The translations under genes and the position numbers were made by a program. The notes under the pieces are model-generated. The model ran no database searches. It was not told the DNA's origin and worked only from the letters and a program-made list of their open reading frames with translations. A DNA stretch of 64,000 bases from Eledone cirrhosa (lineage: Eukaryota): positions 32,860,001 to 32,924,000 of the forward strand of contig OZ024745.1 in the NCBI GenBank assembly GCA_964016885.1. The letters run 5' to 3'. This document shows positions 18,872 through 42,269 of the stretch, one piece after another (the first letter of the stretch is position 1; the number at the start of each line of letters is the position of its first letter).

Positions 18872-21682
18872 TCATTCATCAGCATTATCAAACTGGCCAC
18901 TGAATTTTCGGAAGCCAACAAAGTCATAATTGATATTGTCCTTGTGAATGTCAGAAGGCAAGAATATATGATCCCTGCTCAGCTGAGAAGTGGTGGTGGT
19001 CACTCTAGATTGTCTGTAGGAGGAGGAATTGTAGGTAGTAGTCACAGCAGATTGTCTGTAGCAAGAGTTGTAGGTGGTGGTGGTGGTGGTGGTGGTGGTG
19101 GTAGTGGTAGTGGTCGTTGTGTGGCTCCCTCCGGCAACTTTCTCTTCCTCCCAATTTTCTTCCCCTTCCTTGTCCTCCTCTCTGATCTCGTCTCCTTTTC
19201 CCCCCACCCCAGATCCAACAATAGCAGCAACACTTCTCTCTACACTTGTGCTCTGGTCACCATGGCAATGATCTGTGACAGAAGCAGCAGCTGTAGTAAC
19301 ATCATTGTCATCATGGAATTGTGAAAGGGAGGTATCATCTATTTCAGCTCCGTAGCGGTCCCTCTTGTTGCCATCTTCAACACTACCACGAAGGAGAGGG
19401 GTCAGCGTCATGCTCGAAGATTTCAAGGGATTGCAAATAACTCCACTGTATGATGCCACCTCTACCCTCTTATCTTTATCATCAACAACACCGTCGCCAT
19501 GATCATCATCATCAAAGTCCTCAAACTGGCCTGCCAGTGACTGAGTGCGGAAGCGATGACAGGTGGCAGCAGTGTGCTCTTGGTTTGTGTTGTCCAAGAT
19601 GGATGATGACACACTGTCACATTGCTCAAAAGGATTAGAGCCAATATCTAAGTAGGTAAGCCTCTCAAACCGCTCAAGAATCCTTGGTTCTTGCAGAAGG
19701 CAGTTGTTTCGAAGATCGAGGTAGATGAGCTGACGGGATAGGCTCCCAAATGACTCTGGCAGCTCCACCAAGTTGTTGTGGCAAACCTCCAAGTGCTCAA
19801 GAGCTGGCAGGTGTCCCAAGCGCTCAGGCAGGCAACCCAGAGAGTTTTTTGACAGTAGACACAGTTGCAAAGATTTCAGGCGGCAAAAAGAATCTGGCAG
19901 AGACTCGAGACGGTTGTCACAGAGATTCAACATCTTTAAGGCTTGCAAATCTCCAAAATTTTCAGGCAGGTCTTGCAATCGGTTTCCATCAATGCTGAGC
20001 AAGGTGACAGCATGGAGCCAACAGAAGGAGTTTGGCAGTGTTTTCAAAAGATTTCCAACATTCTGATTATCAACAAATGGATTCCTTCCCAAATTTAGAC
20101 AGGTCAATGACTGCAACCCTTCAAAAGCATCAGCTAAAATGTCTAGCCGGTTCTCTGACACATCCAACAGCCTCAACTGTGTAGCAGTTATGCCAAACTC
20201 CTCGAATTCTGGCCACTCAGTCAGCAGGTTCTCCCCAGCCTGGAATTCTCGAATCTCTGACATCTTTGCTATCCATGGTGGAAGCTTTTCAATAGAGTTC
20301 TTTTGGATGTACAACTGTTGTAGACACACTGAGGATTGAAATTGTGATGGTAGGCTTTGCAAACAATTGCTGGACACATCGACAGTCTGAAGGTTTTCTA
20401 GCACAGAAATGCTCGCTGGCAGAGATTTTAACTGGTTGTCATGGACCACAAGCATCCGCAAACTCTTCAATGATCCTATGTTTGCAGGAAGTTCTTTTAA
20501 GTTATTCTGCTCTGCCTGTAGCACTTTCAGGTGCTGAAGATAGCCGATAGACTGTGGGAGCATTGTGATCCGGTTTTCGCTGCATACAAATGCCTCTAAA
20601 TACAATAAGTTACCTATGTCTTCAGGCAGACAGCTCAAATGACAACCTACCAATTTCAAAACCCTCACACTGTTTCTTAGTATTATGTCTTCGAGTTTTC
20701 CCATAGAGGTCAACTGACGAAACAGGTTGAACTGCTGAACCCCTTCTATGTTCTCTACCAATCTCTCTGTATAAGGGGCTTCTCCACCAACATCAACACA
20801 GTTGGTGGTGGTGTTTGGGCAAGATGCACACTTTACTCCTCTGACATTATGACCATCACTCAATCCCTCATAAACTGTGTTGTCACCTAAAACATTGGCA
20901 GGTACTCCTTGATCTCTAACATTACCATTCACAAAGTTAACATTGCTTTTTGCAGGACGAAGTGGGCAAGGACCTGAATTTTTTAAACCAATGCTTGCAT
21001 TCTTCATGGTGCCCTCAGAAAGGTCCCAAATTTTCTTTTTGTTCTTCATGTTACCATTGCCATCAGCTATCAGGGGTGTGTTAGTAAGAGCTGCACCAGA
21101 CTCTGGGGCTTCAGCATCAACATTAACCTTGTTTATTTTACTCATAGAGTTTGAAGTTGTCATTTTCATAATAATATTGCTGTCAGCTATCAGAGGTCTC
21201 TTTGTAAGAGTTGTACTGGTCCCTGAAATATTGACATCAACCCCTTGTGATGAATTCATAGGGTCTGATGATGTTATATTCTTGGTGTCAGGGTATGATG
21301 GCCCAGACACATTATTTAAGGTATTCTTATCATCCAATATTAAAGTTTCACTTTCTAACACTCCAATATTATCCGTGGTATCTTTATGATTCAATGTTAA
21401 AATGTCAGTCCCTAACTCTTCAACATTATCCAAAGTTCCCTTATGATCAGATATTAAGGTTTCAGTCCCAAACACCTTAATATTATTTGAGGTATCTATA
21501 AGACAGTCGGAAGATGCCTCATTGCAGTTGGTGTTTTTATTCATGTGATCACAGTTCTTTGATGAAATCCCTTTAGTATTAGGAGATTTGGGTTTTGTTG
21601 CTGAGCATTTTTTCTTTTTTTTCTTAGTCTTGTGGTCTCGACTTGCAGATACTGTGGCTCCTACCAAGGGTTCCTCCATCAT
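18872..21682 (-). CDS. Leucine-rich repeat protein (936 aa): low-complexity N-terminus, central typical-class LRR array, acidic tail with PRMT5-binding-motif-like sequences; single coding exon
   Basis: Uninterrupted 2.8-kb ORF with roughly 14-15 LxxLxLxxNxLxxLP repeats (e.g. LKMLNLCDNRLESLPDSF). A canonical acceptor (polypyrimidine + CAG, plus 21693-21695) lies 10 nt upstream of the ATG. Confidence 0.92.
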   Translation of the reverse strand: MMEEPLVGATVSASRDHKTKKKKKKCSATKPKSPNTKGISSKNCDHMNKNTNCNEASSDCLIDTSNNIKVFGTETLISDHKGTLDNVEELGTDILTLNHKDTTDNIGVLESETLILDDKNTLNNVSGPSYPDTKNITSSDPMNSSQGVDVNISGTSTTLTKRPLIADSNIIMKMTTSNSMSKINKVNVDAEAPESGAALTNTPLIADGNGNMKNKKKIWDLSEGTMKNASIGLKNSGPCPLRPAKSNVNFVNGNVRDQGVPANVLGDNTVYEGLSDGHNVRGVKCASCPNTTTNCVDVGGEAPYTERLVENIEGVQQFNLFRQLTSMGKLEDIILRNSVRVLKLVGCHLSCLPEDIGNLLYLEAFVCSENRITMLPQSIGYLQHLKVLQAEQNNLKELPANIGSLKSLRMLVVHDNQLKSLPASISVLENLQTVDVSSNCLQSLPSQFQSSVCLQQLYIQKNSIEKLPPWIAKMSEIREFQAGENLLTEWPEFEEFGITATQLRLLDVSENRLDILADAFEGLQSLTCLNLGRNPFVDNQNVGNLLKTLPNSFCWLHAVTLLSIDGNRLQDLPENFGDLQALKMLNLCDNRLESLPDSFCRLKSLQLCLLSKNSLGCLPERLGHLPALEHLEVCHNNLVELPESFGSLSRQLIYLDLRNNCLLQEPRILERFERLTYLDIGSNPFEQCDSVSSSILDNTNQEHTAATCHRFRTQSLAGQFEDFDDDDHGDGVVDDKDKRVEVASYSGVICNPLKSSSMTLTPLLRGSVEDGNKRDRYGAEIDDTSLSQFHDDNDVTTAAASVTDHCHGDQSTSVERSVAAIVGSGVGGKGDEIREEDKEGEENWEEEKVAGGSHTTTTTTTTTTTTTTTTYNSCYRQSAVTTTYNSSSYRQSRVTTTTSQLSRDHIFLPSDIHKDNINYDFVGFRKFSGQFDNADE

Positions 21683-21741
21683 TTAGTCAAACCTGAATTT
21701 AGAAGAAAGAATAAAATAAGCTTAATTAATTTTACACTTTA

Positions 21742-22620
21742 TCTATATATATAAAACTGAGGATGTCTGTCTATGTGTGTGTGAGTTCGAATCCCTAAAA
21801 CTCGAAAACCACCCAACCGACTGTTTTCAAACTTTACACATATAATACTTATGGTTCAGGGAGTGTTCTGAGCAAAAAAAATTTCAAATTTTCTATGCCC
21901 CAGGGACCACATTAGGCGATTTAGTGATCTCGCTCTATAATTCTTAGTCTTTCTCTTTTTAGATAGATACATACTTATAACGCAGCGCCGTTATAATATC
22001 TGTCAGTATGGCTGACTGTCTGCATTACGTCACTTCCTTGAGGATGTGTGTGTGTGTGAGTTTGAATTCCTAAAACTCGAGAAGTACCCAACCGATTTTT
22101 TTCAAACTTTACATGTGTATTACTTATGTTTTGACTTTTTTATCTCCTAGGGCCCGCATTAGGTGAAAAACTGTGTTGTTTAACATTTTTAGGGGTTTTT
22201 TGAGGCGTTACGTCAGACCGATTTCCTTGAAATTGTAACTATGTATTAGTCAGTTTCTTCTTCATACCGTAAGCAAAGAAAATCCAACTTTCTTATGGCC
22301 TAGGACCCGCATTAGGTGAAAAACTTCATTTTTTCAGCTTCTTAGGGCTTTTTGGAGGCGCTATGTCTAGCCGATTTTCCTTAAATTTCAAGGCATATTA
22401 TGCACATGAAAAAAAATCATTTTCTTGATCCCCTAGGGCTCGTATTAGGTGAAAACCTGCATTTTTCCTGCTTCATCGAGGAAAATCTTAAAGATTATCC
22501 AGCCATCAGAGTATTCGGTTTATTTTGTTTACATATTGTCTAGGCATGCAGATTTTAGGTATAGTGGCGGCCCGCGTTCCAAAATACCTTATCCCGTGCA
22601 ACGCCGGGTACCACTGCTAG
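21742..22620 (+). mobile_element. Non-autonomous Helitron
   Basis: 5' TC(TA)nAAA start, subterminal hairpin CCCGTGCAACGCCGGG, 3' CTAG, inserted between A and T, no TSD; internal repeats of taggg...attaggtgaaaa. Confidence 0.85.
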
Positions 22621-22861
22621 TTTACAATATTTCTAATGAAAATCACAGACTATGATTTTCAAATAATTTTGAAGATAATCAAGAATTTTTGAGAAATTTA
22701 GCTAAATAACTTTCTTATTACTAAGATTGTGTTGGCAACATAATTCAACATATGTTTTTACATGAAATTATGATGGAATGTGTTTTAGATAAAGAGAAAC
22801 ACTTTAAAATATACTGATTTGTATTGTACAAGCAGAGATGGTTTCATGTGAAAAGGGTTAA
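22621..22861. mobile_element. Short non-autonomous element ending GGGTTAA (piggyBac-like MITE), homologous to 55423-55713
   Basis: Aligns by eye with the reverse complement of 55423-55713; terminus aaaagggttaa. Confidence 0.5.
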
Positions 22862-23574
22862 TACTTTCATTACCATTTTTCTAATGAAGGATATTGATCC
22901 TTAAATACTTTTTTAAATAATTCAGAATTTGTAGGAATTTATAAATATAATGAACTTTTTCATTAAACTGGGGTTTACAACATACATCAACAAATGGACA
23001 ATTTTGTATGAGGAGCAGTTTCAGATGGGTTGGTATCAAAAGGATTAAGCTAACGTTTGCAGAGATTCTGAATAGCCGCGAGATAAATAAAAACATTTTA
23101 AAACAAAGCGACTTGTACTGTACAACTAGTCTGTGATTTTAACAATTTTGAAATTAACCAAGAACTTGCCCCTATAGTATCGGAGCTGGTAGTTAGAATG
23201 TCTAACGAAAGAATCACTGGACAGATTTTACAGGCAAAACCAACCAGCAGGAGACCCAAGTGTAGGCCCCAAGCAAAATGGTTGGATACCATCCATGAGC
23301 TTAGCTAGTCTTACTTGGGGATCCAGCTAGATCAGTTGAAGATAGTTGCTTCTAACAGGACCCATTGGAAGGAGTGTTTGAGGACTCTGCCCCATGACCC
23401 TAATAATCTACTAGCAGTTTTGCATATTCTACATGTGTACAATGGTTGTGGGAGGACTAATGATTTAAAATAAAAATGAAACTTATTATTTAGACATTTA
23501 ATTATATTTCCTTTTTTTCTTTATGGAAAAATATTTAATTAACTGAGCAAAAATATTCAATTTTTCAATTATTT

Positions 23575-23832
23575 CAATGTGGTCATGTAGGTGTTATGAC
23601 AAAAAGCACCCAGCCTACACTGTAAAGTGGTCGTGTAGGTGTCATGATAAAAAGCATCCAGCACTCACTGTAAATGTAGTTGGTATTAGGATGAGCATCC
23701 AGCTGTAGAAACCAAGCCAGAAACAGTTCTGTATGAGTATGACATGGTCACCTGACCCGACTTGCTTCAAACGGAACAACCCATCTAACCCATGCTAGTG
23801 TGGAAAATGGACGTTAAACAATAATGATGATG
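23575..23832 (+). mobile_element. SINE 3' part with RTE-type tail
   Basis: aaaagcacccag...tgtaaagtgg repeats and aacccatgctagtgtggaaaatggacgttaaa + (gat)n. Confidence 0.7.
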
Positions 23833-24029
23833 CTTCATCTACTTTGTTCTTTGCAAAATACTTGCAATAGTTTCAATCTATTACATCATCATCAATATTT
23901 AAATATTTGTAGCACAGATTTTTGCTAGTTTGACTGCATGTTTGTTTTAAAGCATTGTTTTTGTCAAGTGTTTATACTTCAAAAATGGGCAAAAATCATC
24001 ACATTCTGACATTCAAAGAGTTCAAATAG

Positions 24030-26330
24030 TCTTATACAACACAAGTTATGTAGAGTATAAAATTTCTGTAAAAATGTCCATAATGCTATTAAATACTAAA
24101 CAACTGTCCATAATGCTATTAATAAATAGTAAATTTGTGGTTTGTAATCTGACAAAAAGAGAAGTGGACCACCTAGACCAACTAGAGATGATTGCATCAT
24201 CAAAAACAACACCTCACCTTCTACAAATTCATACCAAAATACTAGTTGCACTGCTTCAAGAGGTACAGATGTTAGCCGTAGGACTGTATCACACAAGCCA
24301 AGATTAACATTGAATATGAAAAAGAAGCACCTAATATATGCTGAAAAAATAAAGATGAACATTAGGCTGGAGGGGAATGGGGTCATGTTATGTTTTCTGA
24401 AGAATCAACACTGTAGTAGCTTACACAAACATCATGTCAAGAGGGCTCTTGGAAAAAAAAGATGAAAAATATGCCATACAGAAAATGAAACACCAACACA
24501 GTCTGTTGATTTCAAAGTCTAGAACCAGCAGTTTATATTTCTTTTGACTCTGGGACAAATATAAATGGTCAAAAGTACCTGAAACTGATGACAGACAAAC
24601 TGGAAATACACATGCATATACATGGAAGCAATATATTTATGCAATAGTGCTCGAATATAGGGTCCAAGGGGCGATTAAGGAAATGAAAAATGGTAAGGCT
24701 GGACCATCGGGGATAGTTACTGAGATGCTGAAGGCAACAGGGGACGTAGGCACTAAACTGGTTGCACGCATCATCTATCAGGCTATATATGGTGGTGTCA
24801 TACCCAAAGACTGGTGCAGCAGTATTCTCATAAATTGCTACAAAGGTAAAGGGGATGCTCTGGAGAGGAGCAATTACAGGGGTATAAAACTGATGGATCA
24901 GATTATGAAAGTGGCAGAAAGGATATTAGCACAACTAATTAGAGAAAGGGTCAAACTAGATGAGATGCAGTTTGGTTTTGTGCCTGGGAAAAGTACAACA
25001 GATGCCCTCTTCTTGGCGAGACAATTACAAAAGAGGTTCTTAGAGAAGAATAAACCACTATACTTAGCCTTTGTTGACCTAGCAAAGACCTTTGATAGGG
25101 TACCCCGATCTGTCATCTGGTGGTCCCTAAGGAAACTAAGTGTTGAGGAATGGCTTGTGAGGACAGTGCAAACTTTGTACAGAGGTGCTGTCAGTAAAGT
25201 CAGGGTAGGAATGGAGTTTAGTGAGGAATTCCAGATACAAGTAGGAGTACATCAAGGTTCGGTCCTCAGCCCACTCTTGTTCATTATAGTCCTCCAAGCT
25301 ATAACAGAGGAGTTTAAGACTGGCTGTCCATGGGAACTTCTCTATGCTGATGATCTGGTTCTTATAGCAGAATCAGTAGAGGAGTTAGAGAATAAATTCT
25401 GGCTATGGAAACAGCAGTTGGAAGCAAGAGGACTGAGAGTGAACCTAGCTAAGACAAAAGTGTTGAGTAGAAAAGAGGACAAAACTCTGATACCGTCAGG
25501 GCAGGGAAATGGCCATGTTCGATATGCAGAAAAGGAACTGGCATAAATTCTATAAAATGCACACAAGAGATATAGTGGGATAGCAGGCAAACTAACAGGT
25601 AGGGAGAAATATGTATGCAGTAGATGTACAGGGAAAATAGACAGGTCGCATTGATAGACATATTTTTCAAATGCAGGTGGGTGCTATAGAAGTGGTGGAT
25701 AGCTTCCGGTACCTAGGAGATCAGATTAGCATGGGAGGGGGGTTCCGAGGCCATAGTATCTAGAATAAGGACGGGTTGGTAGAAGTTTAGGGAACTGCTT
25801 CCTCTGCTTACGAAGAAGGGTTTCTCCCTGCATACGAAAGGCCGGTTATATGATGCCTGTGTGAGGAGCGCGATGCTGCATGGTAGTGAGACATGGGCAG
25901 CAACTGCAGAGGATATGCAATGTCAATGTGCGTGAACGACCCAGGATGGATGTGTTGAAAGAGAAACTTTGTCTGAGAGGGATAGAATGTAGTGTGCAAG
26001 AGAGGAGACAGGTGGTATGGACATGTGATGCGCATGGAGGATGAGCGATGGGTGAAGAAGTGCCAGGAAATGCCTGTTGAAGGAAGACGTTGTAGAGGTA
26101 GACCACGAAAAACATGGGCGGAGGTGGTGAGAACAGACCTCAGATCGCTGAAGCTCACGGTGGAGTTGACGAAGGACCGTGACAAGTGGAGAGATGCTGT
26201 GCTGAATAAGACCCGCCCCACCCTTGCAAGCAGGGAAAAGCGGACATTTGATGATGATGATGATGATGATGCTCCATGTTACAGAGCAAGATTTGCAAAA
26301 ATACCTACTTTCAGTCCAGGGGTTGGTAAC
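24030..26330 (+). mobile_element. Tc1-type DNA transposon relic, split by an RTE insertion
   Basis: W..VMFSEES and INGQKYLKLMTDKLEIHMHIHGSNIFMQ before 24645, resuming as DDAPCYRAR after ~26265 (FMQDxAPCH motif). Confidence 0.65.
24647..26267 (+). mobile_element. RTE-clade LINE, 5'-truncated, with (GAT)n tail; same family as 14597-17103
   Basis: 299-aa RT ORF with YADD, followed by a frameshifted C-terminal part and the tail. Confidence 0.95.
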
Positions 26331-26596
26331 ATGACCCTGAGCTGCTGTAGCTGCACAGGTCATAGAAGTGGAGCCTCTAAAAGACATAAGTACTTCAGCA
26401 GAGTATCATCCAGATGATGAAGATGACAAAGTGAAACACCTTTACCATCCGATGTCATATGGATTAAGCCCTTTTCAGCCATGTCTTGATACTTTTGACA
26501 GTTTTTCAAAAGATAAGTTAAATGTGGTTGAGAAATGGATAGACGCTGGTTAATTTACTCACCTAGCAAATTCTATGCTTTGTTCTGCTCGTTGCA

Positions 26597-26915
26597 ACAT
26601 CATGACCATTTAACATCCATTTTTCCATGCTAGCATGGGTTAGATGGGTTGGCTCATTGAGATAAGCCAGATCAGACGTCTTGCTCATACAGAACCGATT
26701 ATGGCTTGATTTCTACAACTGGATGCCATTCCTAACACTAACCATATTTACAGAATGGTCTGGGTGCTTTTTATCGTGACACCTACACAACCACCCTACA
26801 GTGTGGACAGGGTGCTTTTTGTCACGACACCTACACAACCACTTTACAATATGAGCTGGGTGCTTTTTGTTGCGACACCTACATGACCACTTTACAGGGT
26901 GGACTGGGCGCTTTT
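26597..26915 (-). mobile_element. SINE 3' part with RTE-type tail and internal tandem units
   Basis: ccatgctagcatgggttagatgggtt and repeated gggtgctttt...gacacctacacaaccac. Confidence 0.7.
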
Positions 26916-27469
26916 TAATTTTGCAAATTTGTCAGATAATTGAGCTTATCTATAAACTGGTCGCAAGGCTTTTGTTAAAGGTAGACACAAAATAGAAAAA
27001 TATGGAAAAAGTGAAACTCACAAAAAAACAAAGTAAGATCTTTTCTTTACCAAACTTTGTATGTTCAATGACAGAACTGTCTCAGCAGGTCTTATAACTG
27101 CAAAAAAGAAACAGATGCAGAAAATCAGAGTGACTAATCTTTATTACAAATGTGGTTCTCCATCGGTCATCACGGGTATCAAGGTTTAGGTTCCCCAAGT
27201 AAAAATAAAGGCTATCTTTTTTGCAACTTAAGATTTTTGCCAAAAATGATACATCACTGAATACATTACAAAATACAGCATATCTCATCACTGACATACA
27301 AAATGATCTGATACAGTTCTCTCTCTCTCAGTGTTTCATGAGAAAAATAGTTTTGGTTTACAAACATTTCAGGTGACAAATGGTTTTCAGGAACATATTA
27401 AGTTTGTGAACCAAGGTTCCATTGTATGGAATATAAGAGTGTACTGTAAAACATTTTTTGTATTGTTTG

Positions 27470-40050: not shown

Positions 40051-40294
40051 GGTTAGCATTAAGAAGGACATCCAGCTATAGAAACCACACCAAAATATGG
40101 AATATTTGAGCAAAATAGTTCTTCAGTCTGTCTAATTTTAGCTCATGACAACTTGTGCAACCCATGCCAGTAGGGAAAACATAAAATGATGATTTAATTT
40201 CTAATTCATTAAAATTATACTTTGATTTTTTAAAAACAATTTAACTAATATTTGTGTTTTGTGTCTTTTCAAGAATTTCAAAATTTGCTGAAAC

Positions 40295-40941
40295 ATGGAA
40301 CCAGAATTATTACATGAGGTCCCAGAATCCTTGAAAAGATTGGTCCGTCTCATAGTCCGTGGTTTCTACAGTATAGAACATGCCATAATTTTAGATCTCT
40401 TAGTGCGGCATCCTTGCATGAAGGAAGACGACATCATAGATTTGTTAAAATTTGAACGTAAACAACTCCGTTCCATGTTGAATACCCTGAAAATGGACAA
40501 AATTGTTAAAGTGCGCATGAGGGTTGAGACTGATTCTGAGGGTCACACCACTCGACATAACTACTATTTCATCAACTATAAGGTTTTTGTCAATGTTGTC
40601 AAATATAAACTGGACCATGTTCGACGAAAGATTGAGGCAGCTGAGCGTCAGAGCACAAGTCGGTCATCTTTCAAGTGTAACAACTGTCTGAAGACCTACA
40701 CTGACCTGGAGGCAGGTCAACTATTTGATTCTTTTACTGGTTTGTTGATGTGTATGATTTGTAATGTGGAGGTGGAGGAAGATGAAAGTGCAATACCCAA
40801 ACAGGATGCACGGACAATGTTAGCAAAATTTAATGAACAGATCCAACCAATATATGATTTGTTGAAAGAATGTGAAGATGTGAGGCTTGCTCCAGAGATT
40901 CTTGAACCAGAGCCTGTGGATATGAAATCTATCACACAAAA
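40295..40941 (+). CDS. GTF2E1: General transcription factor IIE subunit alpha, coding exon 1
   Basis: [37 protein letters not shown], zinc ribbon CNNC...[19 protein letters not shown]; donor GTATGT at 40942 (phase 2). Confidence 0.97.
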
Positions 40942-42269
40942 GTATGTAAATCTCTCTCTCCACTTCTTTTTCCTCTGCCATCATTTAACATCTGTTCTTC
41001 CATTTTGCATGAATCAGATAAATTGTTATAGGGAGGTTGTCAGTACTTAATCAGAGCTACTGTCCTTGACGGGTAGAGAAGCACATTCTGCTTACATACA
41101 TTCTTGTTTTGGCATGGTTTCTATATCAGTTATCACCAACCATTTTATAGCATCAGCATTAGTGATGTCATTTCCTTGGCACAACTGAAGAGTCCTCTTA
41201 ACCTTTTGTTTGGCTAGATATCCTCATTATTGAGTGTATTGGCTGTATTTTATGATGTCATCAGCACTAGGGAGGTTGTCATGTCCTAGACACAGCTGAA
41301 GAGTCCTCTCAATCGCTTGTTTGGCATGCTTTCTATGTTGAAATACCCTTTTTAACACCAAACACTTTCCAATGTGTGCTGGGTGTATTTTTAGATGACA
41401 CAACTGAAAATCCTCTCAACCCTCTTTGTTTGACATGGTTTTTATGGCTAGATACCTTTCTTAACCCCAACCATTTTAAACAGTGAACTGGGTGTATTTT
41501 ACCATAACTATAGTAGAAGACATTTCCCCAAGCTGCCACACAGTGGGACTAAACCTGAAACTATGTAATTGAAATTACATACAACATACCTGTATATATA
41601 TTTCTAGCTATAGTTTATTCTCACTCAGTAGAGTTGTCTTTTTTAGCCTTAAATTAGAGATAATTCTGTTCTGTTGATAAATATCATGGTAGATAATTAT
41701 GGTTTCTGATTTAGGCACACAGCAAACAATTTTGGGGATTAAATCGATCCCATTGCATTACTGGTGCTTTATTTTATTGACCCATGAAGGACAAAAGGCA
41801 AAGTTGACCTCAGTGGGATTTTGAATTCAGAACATAAAGGGCCATAACTATATGCTGCAAATCATATTGTCCAACACTGGTAATCCCTACTTCGGTAGAT
41901 TATAATAATAATTGTTTCTACTTTTGGAACAAGGCCAGCAATTACCCAGTGCATTACTGGTACTTTATTTTATTGAGTTAACCTCGGCGGGATTTGAACT
42001 CAGAATGGCAAGGGCCGTAACTCTATGCATCAAATAGAATAACAATAGTGTGACCTTGTGATACACTTAACCCATTCTTTCACACTCCATGTGTACAATG
42101 ATCTTTGTCAATATAAACATTAACCGTGGCATTTTTTTAAGAGACTCTCTCCACTATTTTTCTGTCATTAATTTTCTTCTTATCACAGCAAAATAAAATA
42201 GGTTTTAACTACAAGACCAATGATAGGAAGATCATTCATTTATTTTAAATGGGTAATTTAAAACTATGG

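Follow-up and report, generated by a model that had tools for sequence, protein, structure and literature searches.

An LRR protein of the octopus Eledone cirrhosa with a COPR5-like tail: a likely overlooked PRMT5 adaptor

The 64,000-nucleotide stretch of the octopus Eledone cirrhosa genome analyzed in this work (contig OZ024745.1, positions 32,860,001-32,924,000; hereafter the window) carries a gene for an LRR protein that likely serves as a PRMT5 adaptor so far overlooked and likely represents the full-length form that was truncated to give COPR5. Based on profile comparisons and motif conservation, we consider it probable that this protein is the octopus member of an ancient LRR family with a COPR5-homologous tail, that it docks to the PRMT5 groove through its GQF motif, and that it acts as a substrate adaptor. 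At the level of abstracts, and with most subscription journals outside the coverage, the literature contained no link of COPR5 or of the motif to an LRR protein.

The LRR gene is transcribed and spliced (Table 1). A contig of run X1, whose kind is not recorded, follows the genome as far as 21692 and picks up again at 27022, and a contig of run X3 runs unspliced across the junction at 21692/21693; because X1 joins these two positions and X3 reads through, the coding sequence is a single exon behind a non-coding exon. An in-frame TAA lies directly upstream of the ATG. The 3.0 Gb genome contains one copy of the gene (runner-up match: 68 bits), and the nearest named relatives of its product are Octopus proteins with 60% identity. 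LRR families are the sole Pfam matches over the cut-off, with no PDZ domain, and the LRR array holds a family-typical insert ending in GN near residues 535-545. The first-pass annotation had reported a terminal GQFDNADE, an internal GQFEDFD, and an ENWEEE, and all three are found in the ORF translation at the positions where it had read them. Its caution that neither motif is perfect also holds: the strict consensus GQF[D/E]DA[D/E] is not matched by GQFDNAD or GQFEDFD, while Gly, Gln, Phe, and the following acidic residues are kept in both. A poly-Thr run derived from a trinucleotide repeat (19042-19124, minus strand) is located between ENWEEE and FLPSDIH; this pure run is not present in other Octopus proteins.

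Table 1. Features of the LRR gene, with positions in the window
Feature	Residues	Position	Strand	Basis or remark
Coding sequence, single exon	936 aa	21682-18872	minus	ORF translation; layout from N to C: basic low-complexity N-terminus, LRR solenoid, acidic linker, COPR5-type tail
5' UTR intron, 5329 nt, GT(GAGT)..AG		21693-27021	minus	run X1 contig
Upstream non-coding exon		27022-27134	minus	far end estimated from a 113-nt loose contig end
KKKKKK, basic cluster	20-25	21608-21625	minus	NLS-like
About 15 LRRs	~338-690	19613-20671	minus	Pfam and alignment
Internal GQFEDFD	718-724	19511-19531	minus	second motif, cephalopod clade
ENWEEE	842-847	19142-19159	minus	E[DN]W[DE]xE element of the LRR family
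FLPSDIH	907-913	18944-18964	minus	FxPxDxH element of the LRR family
Terminal GQFDNADE, PRMT5-binding-motif-like	929-936	18875-18898	minus	stop codon at 18874-18872

Reverse-transcriptase retroelement fragments are found at 3927-6161, 11716-12674, 14870-17009, and 24548-26417 of the window, one of them inside the 5' UTR intron of the LRR gene; going by motifs, we take them to be RTE-like. Long AT microsatellites also flank the gene. The C-terminal part of a minus-strand ORF at 552-1466 presumably resembles the GIY-YIG nuclease of Penelope-like elements. A plus-strand exon at 40292-41047, assigned to the gene of the TFIIE alpha subunit (PF02002, E 1.5e-27), is divergent from the LRR gene and approximately 13 kb from its 5' exon.

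The first-pass annotation had read an LRR solenoid fused to a COPR5-like tail and considered this an adaptor architecture that did not seem to have been described. The architecture itself stands. It is not a one-off fusion, however: judged by its sequences, this is an ancient animal family with members in cnidarians, molluscs, a brachiopod, chelicerates, an ostracod, locusts, and echinoderms. Named homologues come from sea anemone, jellyfish, chiton, periwinkle, scallop, Lingula, horseshoe crab, spider, ostracod, sea urchins, brittle star, sea star, and sea cucumber, and other bivalves and a locust were added by the tail-profile search described below. In databases, family members are labelled SHOC2-like or LRRC1-like, and LRRD1 is also among their labels. 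SHOC2, LRRC1/SCRIB, and LRRD1 have intracellular LRRs of about 23 residues, as does the LRR family, but match the window protein in partial stretches only. In a comparison that left out SHOC2 itself, an LRR-core profile built without cephalopods gave 332 bits for the window protein in one stretch, compared with 182 for the best non-member; the SCRIB, LRRC40, MFHAS1, and PHLPP proteins tested remained below 125 bits on this profile and lack the tail. In a quick tree with LRR outgroups, likewise without SHOC2, a long branch (1.15) unites the window protein, Octopus, and two further proteins; the tree has long-branch joins and did not resolve the LRR family as one clade. In the ESM Atlas, a sea urchin family protein retrieved generic LRR clusters only, and a family tail gave no usable match.

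Conservation of the tail was examined among 33 homologues (12 from the first search and 21 from a profile search), a set that retains some dependence on the tail because the profile used for the latter 21 contained tail columns. GQF is located within the last 25 residues in 25 of these 33 homologues and the exact GQF[DE]DA[DE] is present in 13, whereas SQF or DQF replaces GQF in two and the whole tail is missing in six, since these sequences stop in or just after the LRRs. Three conserved parts make up the tail of the family, namely, EDWD, FxPxDxH (overlooked in the first-pass annotation), and GQFDDAD. In an alignment of 41 members, Gln and Phe of the terminal motif are invariant, and position 5, which is Asn in the octopus in place of the consensus Asp, is D in 34 and N in seven. 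Modal conservation in this alignment is 0.72 for ENWEEE, 0.65 for FLPSDIH, and 0.85 for the terminal motif, compared with 0.16-0.27 in the linkers. The terminal motif is near the C-terminus, outside Pfam domains, and better conserved than its flanks (0.85 versus 0.27 in the spacer), and its retention in orthologues against divergent flanks agrees with what the earlier reading had expected.

The second GQF motif is present as first described, and it is confined to the cephalopod clade: GQFED occurs in 7/7 cephalopod-clade proteins within otherwise unalignable flanks, occupies the place where most other family members carry NWRG[RK], and is, by these alignments, cephalopod-specific. Non-cephalopod members have conserved NWRG[RK]xRxD and GxSxWRxH segments just after the LRRs. 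The former, at the site where GQFED stands in cephalopods, resembles the RG motif of PRMT5 substrates. A basic run within the first 60 residues was found in five of five other cephalopod-clade proteins checked and in none of eight other members checked. The KKKKKK cluster of the window protein appears to resemble a nuclear localisation signal, and the basic N-terminus thus suggests a nuclear location for the cephalopod LRR protein.

The terminal motif of the LRR protein is more than chance. A back-translated DNA pattern for GQF[DE][DN]A[DE] had two matches in the 3.0 Gb genome, and its reversed control had none. One match is the LRR gene. The other is an exon with a terminal GQFDDADI (followed by a stop codon) approximately 4 kb downstream of pICln (PF03517) exons, pICln being a gene separate from the LRR gene in the octopus genome. 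The pattern missed RIOK1, so this search is not exhaustive. In addition, GQF was absent from the last 20 residues of all 122 unrelated long LRR proteins examined (369,377 residues).

In the accessible portions of the published work, the PRMT5-binding motif is described as unique to three human proteins, all of which are adaptors (bioRxiv 10.1101/2020.08.22.256347). The TIM-barrel groove to which it binds is made up of N239, K240, K241, F243, K248, Y283, and Y286, and Gln and Phe of the motif are reported as indispensable (bioRxiv 10.1101/2020.08.22.256347; PMC8252068); Gly counts with them among the hot spots (PMC8252068). The second Asp of the motif forms a salt bridge with PRMT5 Lys248, and replacing this Asp by Ala raised the IC50 16-fold, from 6 to 97 uM (PMC8252068, accessible text). 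We read the octopus PRMT5 groove from genome exons and from an alignment of human PRMT5 with an Octopus protein of 97% identity. N239, K240, K241, Y283, and Y286 are kept; the two changes, F243Y and K248R, are each common in the 32 PRMT5 proteins that were checked. G, Q, F, and the K248-contacting Asp are all retained in the internal GQFED. In the octopus terminal motif, Asn replaces the Asp that bridges to K248, and weaker binding is therefore possible. Like the LRR protein, pICln (CLNS1A) and RIOK1 have, close to one end and apart from the folded domains, a short GQF motif joined to a client-binding domain (in the LRR protein a putative one). They differ in having a PH-like or kinase domain rather than LRRs, and no homology extends beyond the motif.

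A protein that binds this groove may not be an adaptor. We regard it as unlikely that the LRR protein works instead as a competitor, an anchor, or a substrate, in which case it would block pICln and RIOK1, localise PRMT5, or be methylated on the non-cephalopod NWRG[RK] segment. Such roles would be consistent with the competition of motif peptides for one PRMT5 site (PMC11847536; PMC8252068, accessible portions), with the preference of PRMT5 for GRG motifs (PMC11847536), and with the WRG[RK] segment found after the LRRs in 10 of the 15 non-cephalopod members checked. However, the octopus protein lacks the WRG segment, the adaptor role of all three characterised motif proteins points the other way, and a conserved solenoid of 15-19 repeats on an acidic tether fits client binding.

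The change at position 5 raises a further alternative, which we rate as somewhat less probable still, namely, that members of the family are PRMT5 adaptors and that in the octopus the terminal motif has undergone decay (Asp to Asn), such that the octopus protein binds through the internal motif only, or hardly at all. The 16-fold contribution of this Asp (PMC8252068), the long branch of the cephalopod clade, and the poor scores of the octopus tail in both masked tests (see below) are in line with decay. Yet GQFDNA is kept in 4/4 octopus-clade proteins despite divergent flanks, Asn is also found in three non-cephalopod members including the clam Ruditapes (among the 7/41 in total), and G, Q, and F of the octopus terminal motif are intact.

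The preferred reading, an LRR adaptor with a COPR5-homologous tail, draws on a comparison with COPR5/COPRS (PF15340), the histone H4 adaptor of PRMT5, in which the C-terminal ~70 residues are alike. EDWxxE, PY[D], [FY]xPxxxH, and a terminal GQF[DE]DA[DE] occur in the same order in COPR5 and the LRR family, and both have an acidic region ahead of the tail. ENWEEE aligns with EDWxxE of vertebrate COPR5, as the first-pass annotation had suggested, and FLPSDIH aligns with YxPSxxH. The COPR5-type protein of a golden mole has EDW at position 116, PxxxH at 157, and GQF at 179. COPR5 proteins have 149-235 residues and no LRRs, whereas members of the LRR family have about 620-940 residues and 15-19 LRRs. 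The other likeness to COPR5 proposed initially, between WDLSEGT (residues 219-225; 21028-21008) and WELSEGT, did not hold up and is attributed to chance, since WDLSEGT is N-terminal of the LRRs and lacks conservation (0.15), other Octopus proteins included.

A profile built from the tails of 15 invertebrate proteins, with no vertebrate sequence included (8000 candidates scored, E up to 10), had 67 matches, consisting of 28 LRR proteins, 31 vertebrate COPR5-type proteins, six short tick or tick-like proteins, and two unnamed short proteins; none of the 67 is labelled pICln or RIOK1. The vertebrate matches are from sharks and rays (best E 3.1e-8, shark), frogs, birds, and a golden mole, and include a cluster that contains lungfish COPR5. 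PF15340 was found in 26 of these 31 proteins. With the motif cut from both the profile and the targets, 27 of the 31 vertebrate proteins, a set first picked with the whole tail, outscored all 9300 shuffles, which reached at most 14.5 bits (best real score, 33.5). When the masked test was run in the opposite direction, the best of 8200 shuffles (10.3 bits) was exceeded by 13 of the 41 family members, and the 231 control LRR proteins, which include P0038, a family member whose C-terminus looks mispredicted, did not exceed 1.0 bit. An hhalign comparison of the LRR-family tail with COPR5, motif included, gave a probability of 98.7 and E 3e-16 over 67 columns. The tail profile had no match in the PDB. 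At the family level, these profiles show homology between the tail and COPR5 that extends past the motif, in both masked directions, which upholds the COPR5-like tail of the first-pass annotation; for the window protein alone the relationship is weak. Its score on the masked invertebrate profile, 13.3 bits, does not reach that of the best shuffle, and on the masked COPR5 profile it scored -5.8. The link to COPR5 therefore runs through its orthologues.

The search with the COPR5 family HMM suggested in the first-pass annotation had a divided outcome, with no PF15340 match in the window protein and sub-cut-off matches in orthologues. Such matches were found in five of the 15 invertebrate tails (best tail E 0.0013), and the family proteins of horseshoe crab and sea urchin scored 14-17 bits (cut-off 27) on the C-terminal half of the model. 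A PF15340 search of the octopus genome had no match, and neither had its control. Neither score nor architecture makes the window protein a PF15340 member, and it also differs from COPR5 in the Asn at motif position 5 and in the second motif.

Besides UTP6 and SUZ12, RHOT1 is presumably another neighbour of human COPRS. In the octopus genome, UTP6, SUZ12, Miro, and the LRR gene are located on C4, C1, C19, and C5, respectively, and the markers are mutually unlinked too. The human order of COPRS with UTP6 and SUZ12 is from the accessible part of PMC5370280. That the LRR family and COPR5 gained the motif independently, with the upstream likeness due to acidic composition, is very improbable: the motif does occur in the unrelated pICln and RIOK1 (bioRxiv 10.1101/2020.08.22.256347, accessible part), the region in common is only ~70 low-complexity, acidic residues, and homology gains no support from the synteny test, but the three elements have the same order and similar spacing in both groups, the motif-masked signal exceeds composition-matched shuffles in both directions, and the tail profile retrieves neither pICln nor RIOK1.

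The tail profile retrieves COPR5 even when motif-masked, and COPR5 is therefore likely an LRR-less remnant of the family. The form with LRRs and tail is found in cnidarians, protostomes, and echinoderms and is thus ancestral by parsimony. The LRR part was probably lost at least twice, once in jawed vertebrates (giving COPR5) and once in hard ticks. In Amblyomma, Dermacentor, and Rhipicephalus (P0375, P0385, P0386, and P0399/P0442), the proteins have the same tail but no LRRs and are 178-268 residues long, whereas spiders and horseshoe crab, also chelicerates, retain the LRRs; the tick short forms are apparently an independent COPR5-like truncation. The accessible portion of one preprint limits COPR5 homologues to tetrapods (bioRxiv 10.1101/2020.08.22.256347). 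COPR5-type proteins are present in sharks, rays, and lungfish (P0372, P0376-P0384, P0396, and P0438), and COPR5 is therefore not limited to tetrapods. Among the named matches of searches that were length-limited and crowded by long LRR proteins, there was no intermediate from amphioxus, tunicate, lamprey, or teleost and no named chordate with the LRR-bearing form; the vertebrate LRR gene may have been split. An unnamed 152-residue protein (P0402) has two GQF[DE]D motifs, neither of them terminal. For the wider history, we lean slightly towards a third lineage of PRMT5 adaptors that has existed since the cnidarian-bilaterian ancestor, in which an LRR solenoid on a COPR5 tail would select the methylation client, with COPR5 as its truncated tail and not an invention of tetrapods, a truncation repeated in ticks, and a two-motif version in cephalopods that would bridge two grooves of the PRMT5 octamer.

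In the proposed mechanism, the terminal GQFD[DN]AD would enter the PRMT5 groove in the same way as the peptides of pICln, RIOK1, and COPR5, and the long acidic linker would serve as a flexible tether between the LRRs and the tail; the accessible text of PMC11847536 describes adaptors as flexible tethers. The LRR solenoid would hold a putative client, and an Arg-Gly segment of this client would then be symmetrically dimethylated. In COPR5, residues 1-140 are reported to bind histones and residues 141-184 to bind PRMT5 (PMC5513536, accessible portion). Because the counterpart of the EDW element lies in the stretch of COPR5 that binds histones, this element may touch basic, histone-like tails. 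With the second GQFED motif, the cephalopod proteins may bind the four-groove PRMT5-MEP50 octamer at two points, and this motif could compensate for the Asn in the terminal one.

PRMT5 is a drug target, and its substrate choice rests on three known adaptors. The LRR family would add natural variants of the docking motif, and a widespread gene family would lose its incorrect labels of SHOC2-like and LRRC1-like. If the proposed relationship is true, COPR5 would gain an origin and a lost client-binding domain, and the EDW and FxPxDxH elements would be defined targets for mutation in human COPR5. The sea anemone, sea urchin, locust, and octopus would each hold an unstudied adaptor, and the client of its LRRs would point to a new PRMT5 pathway.
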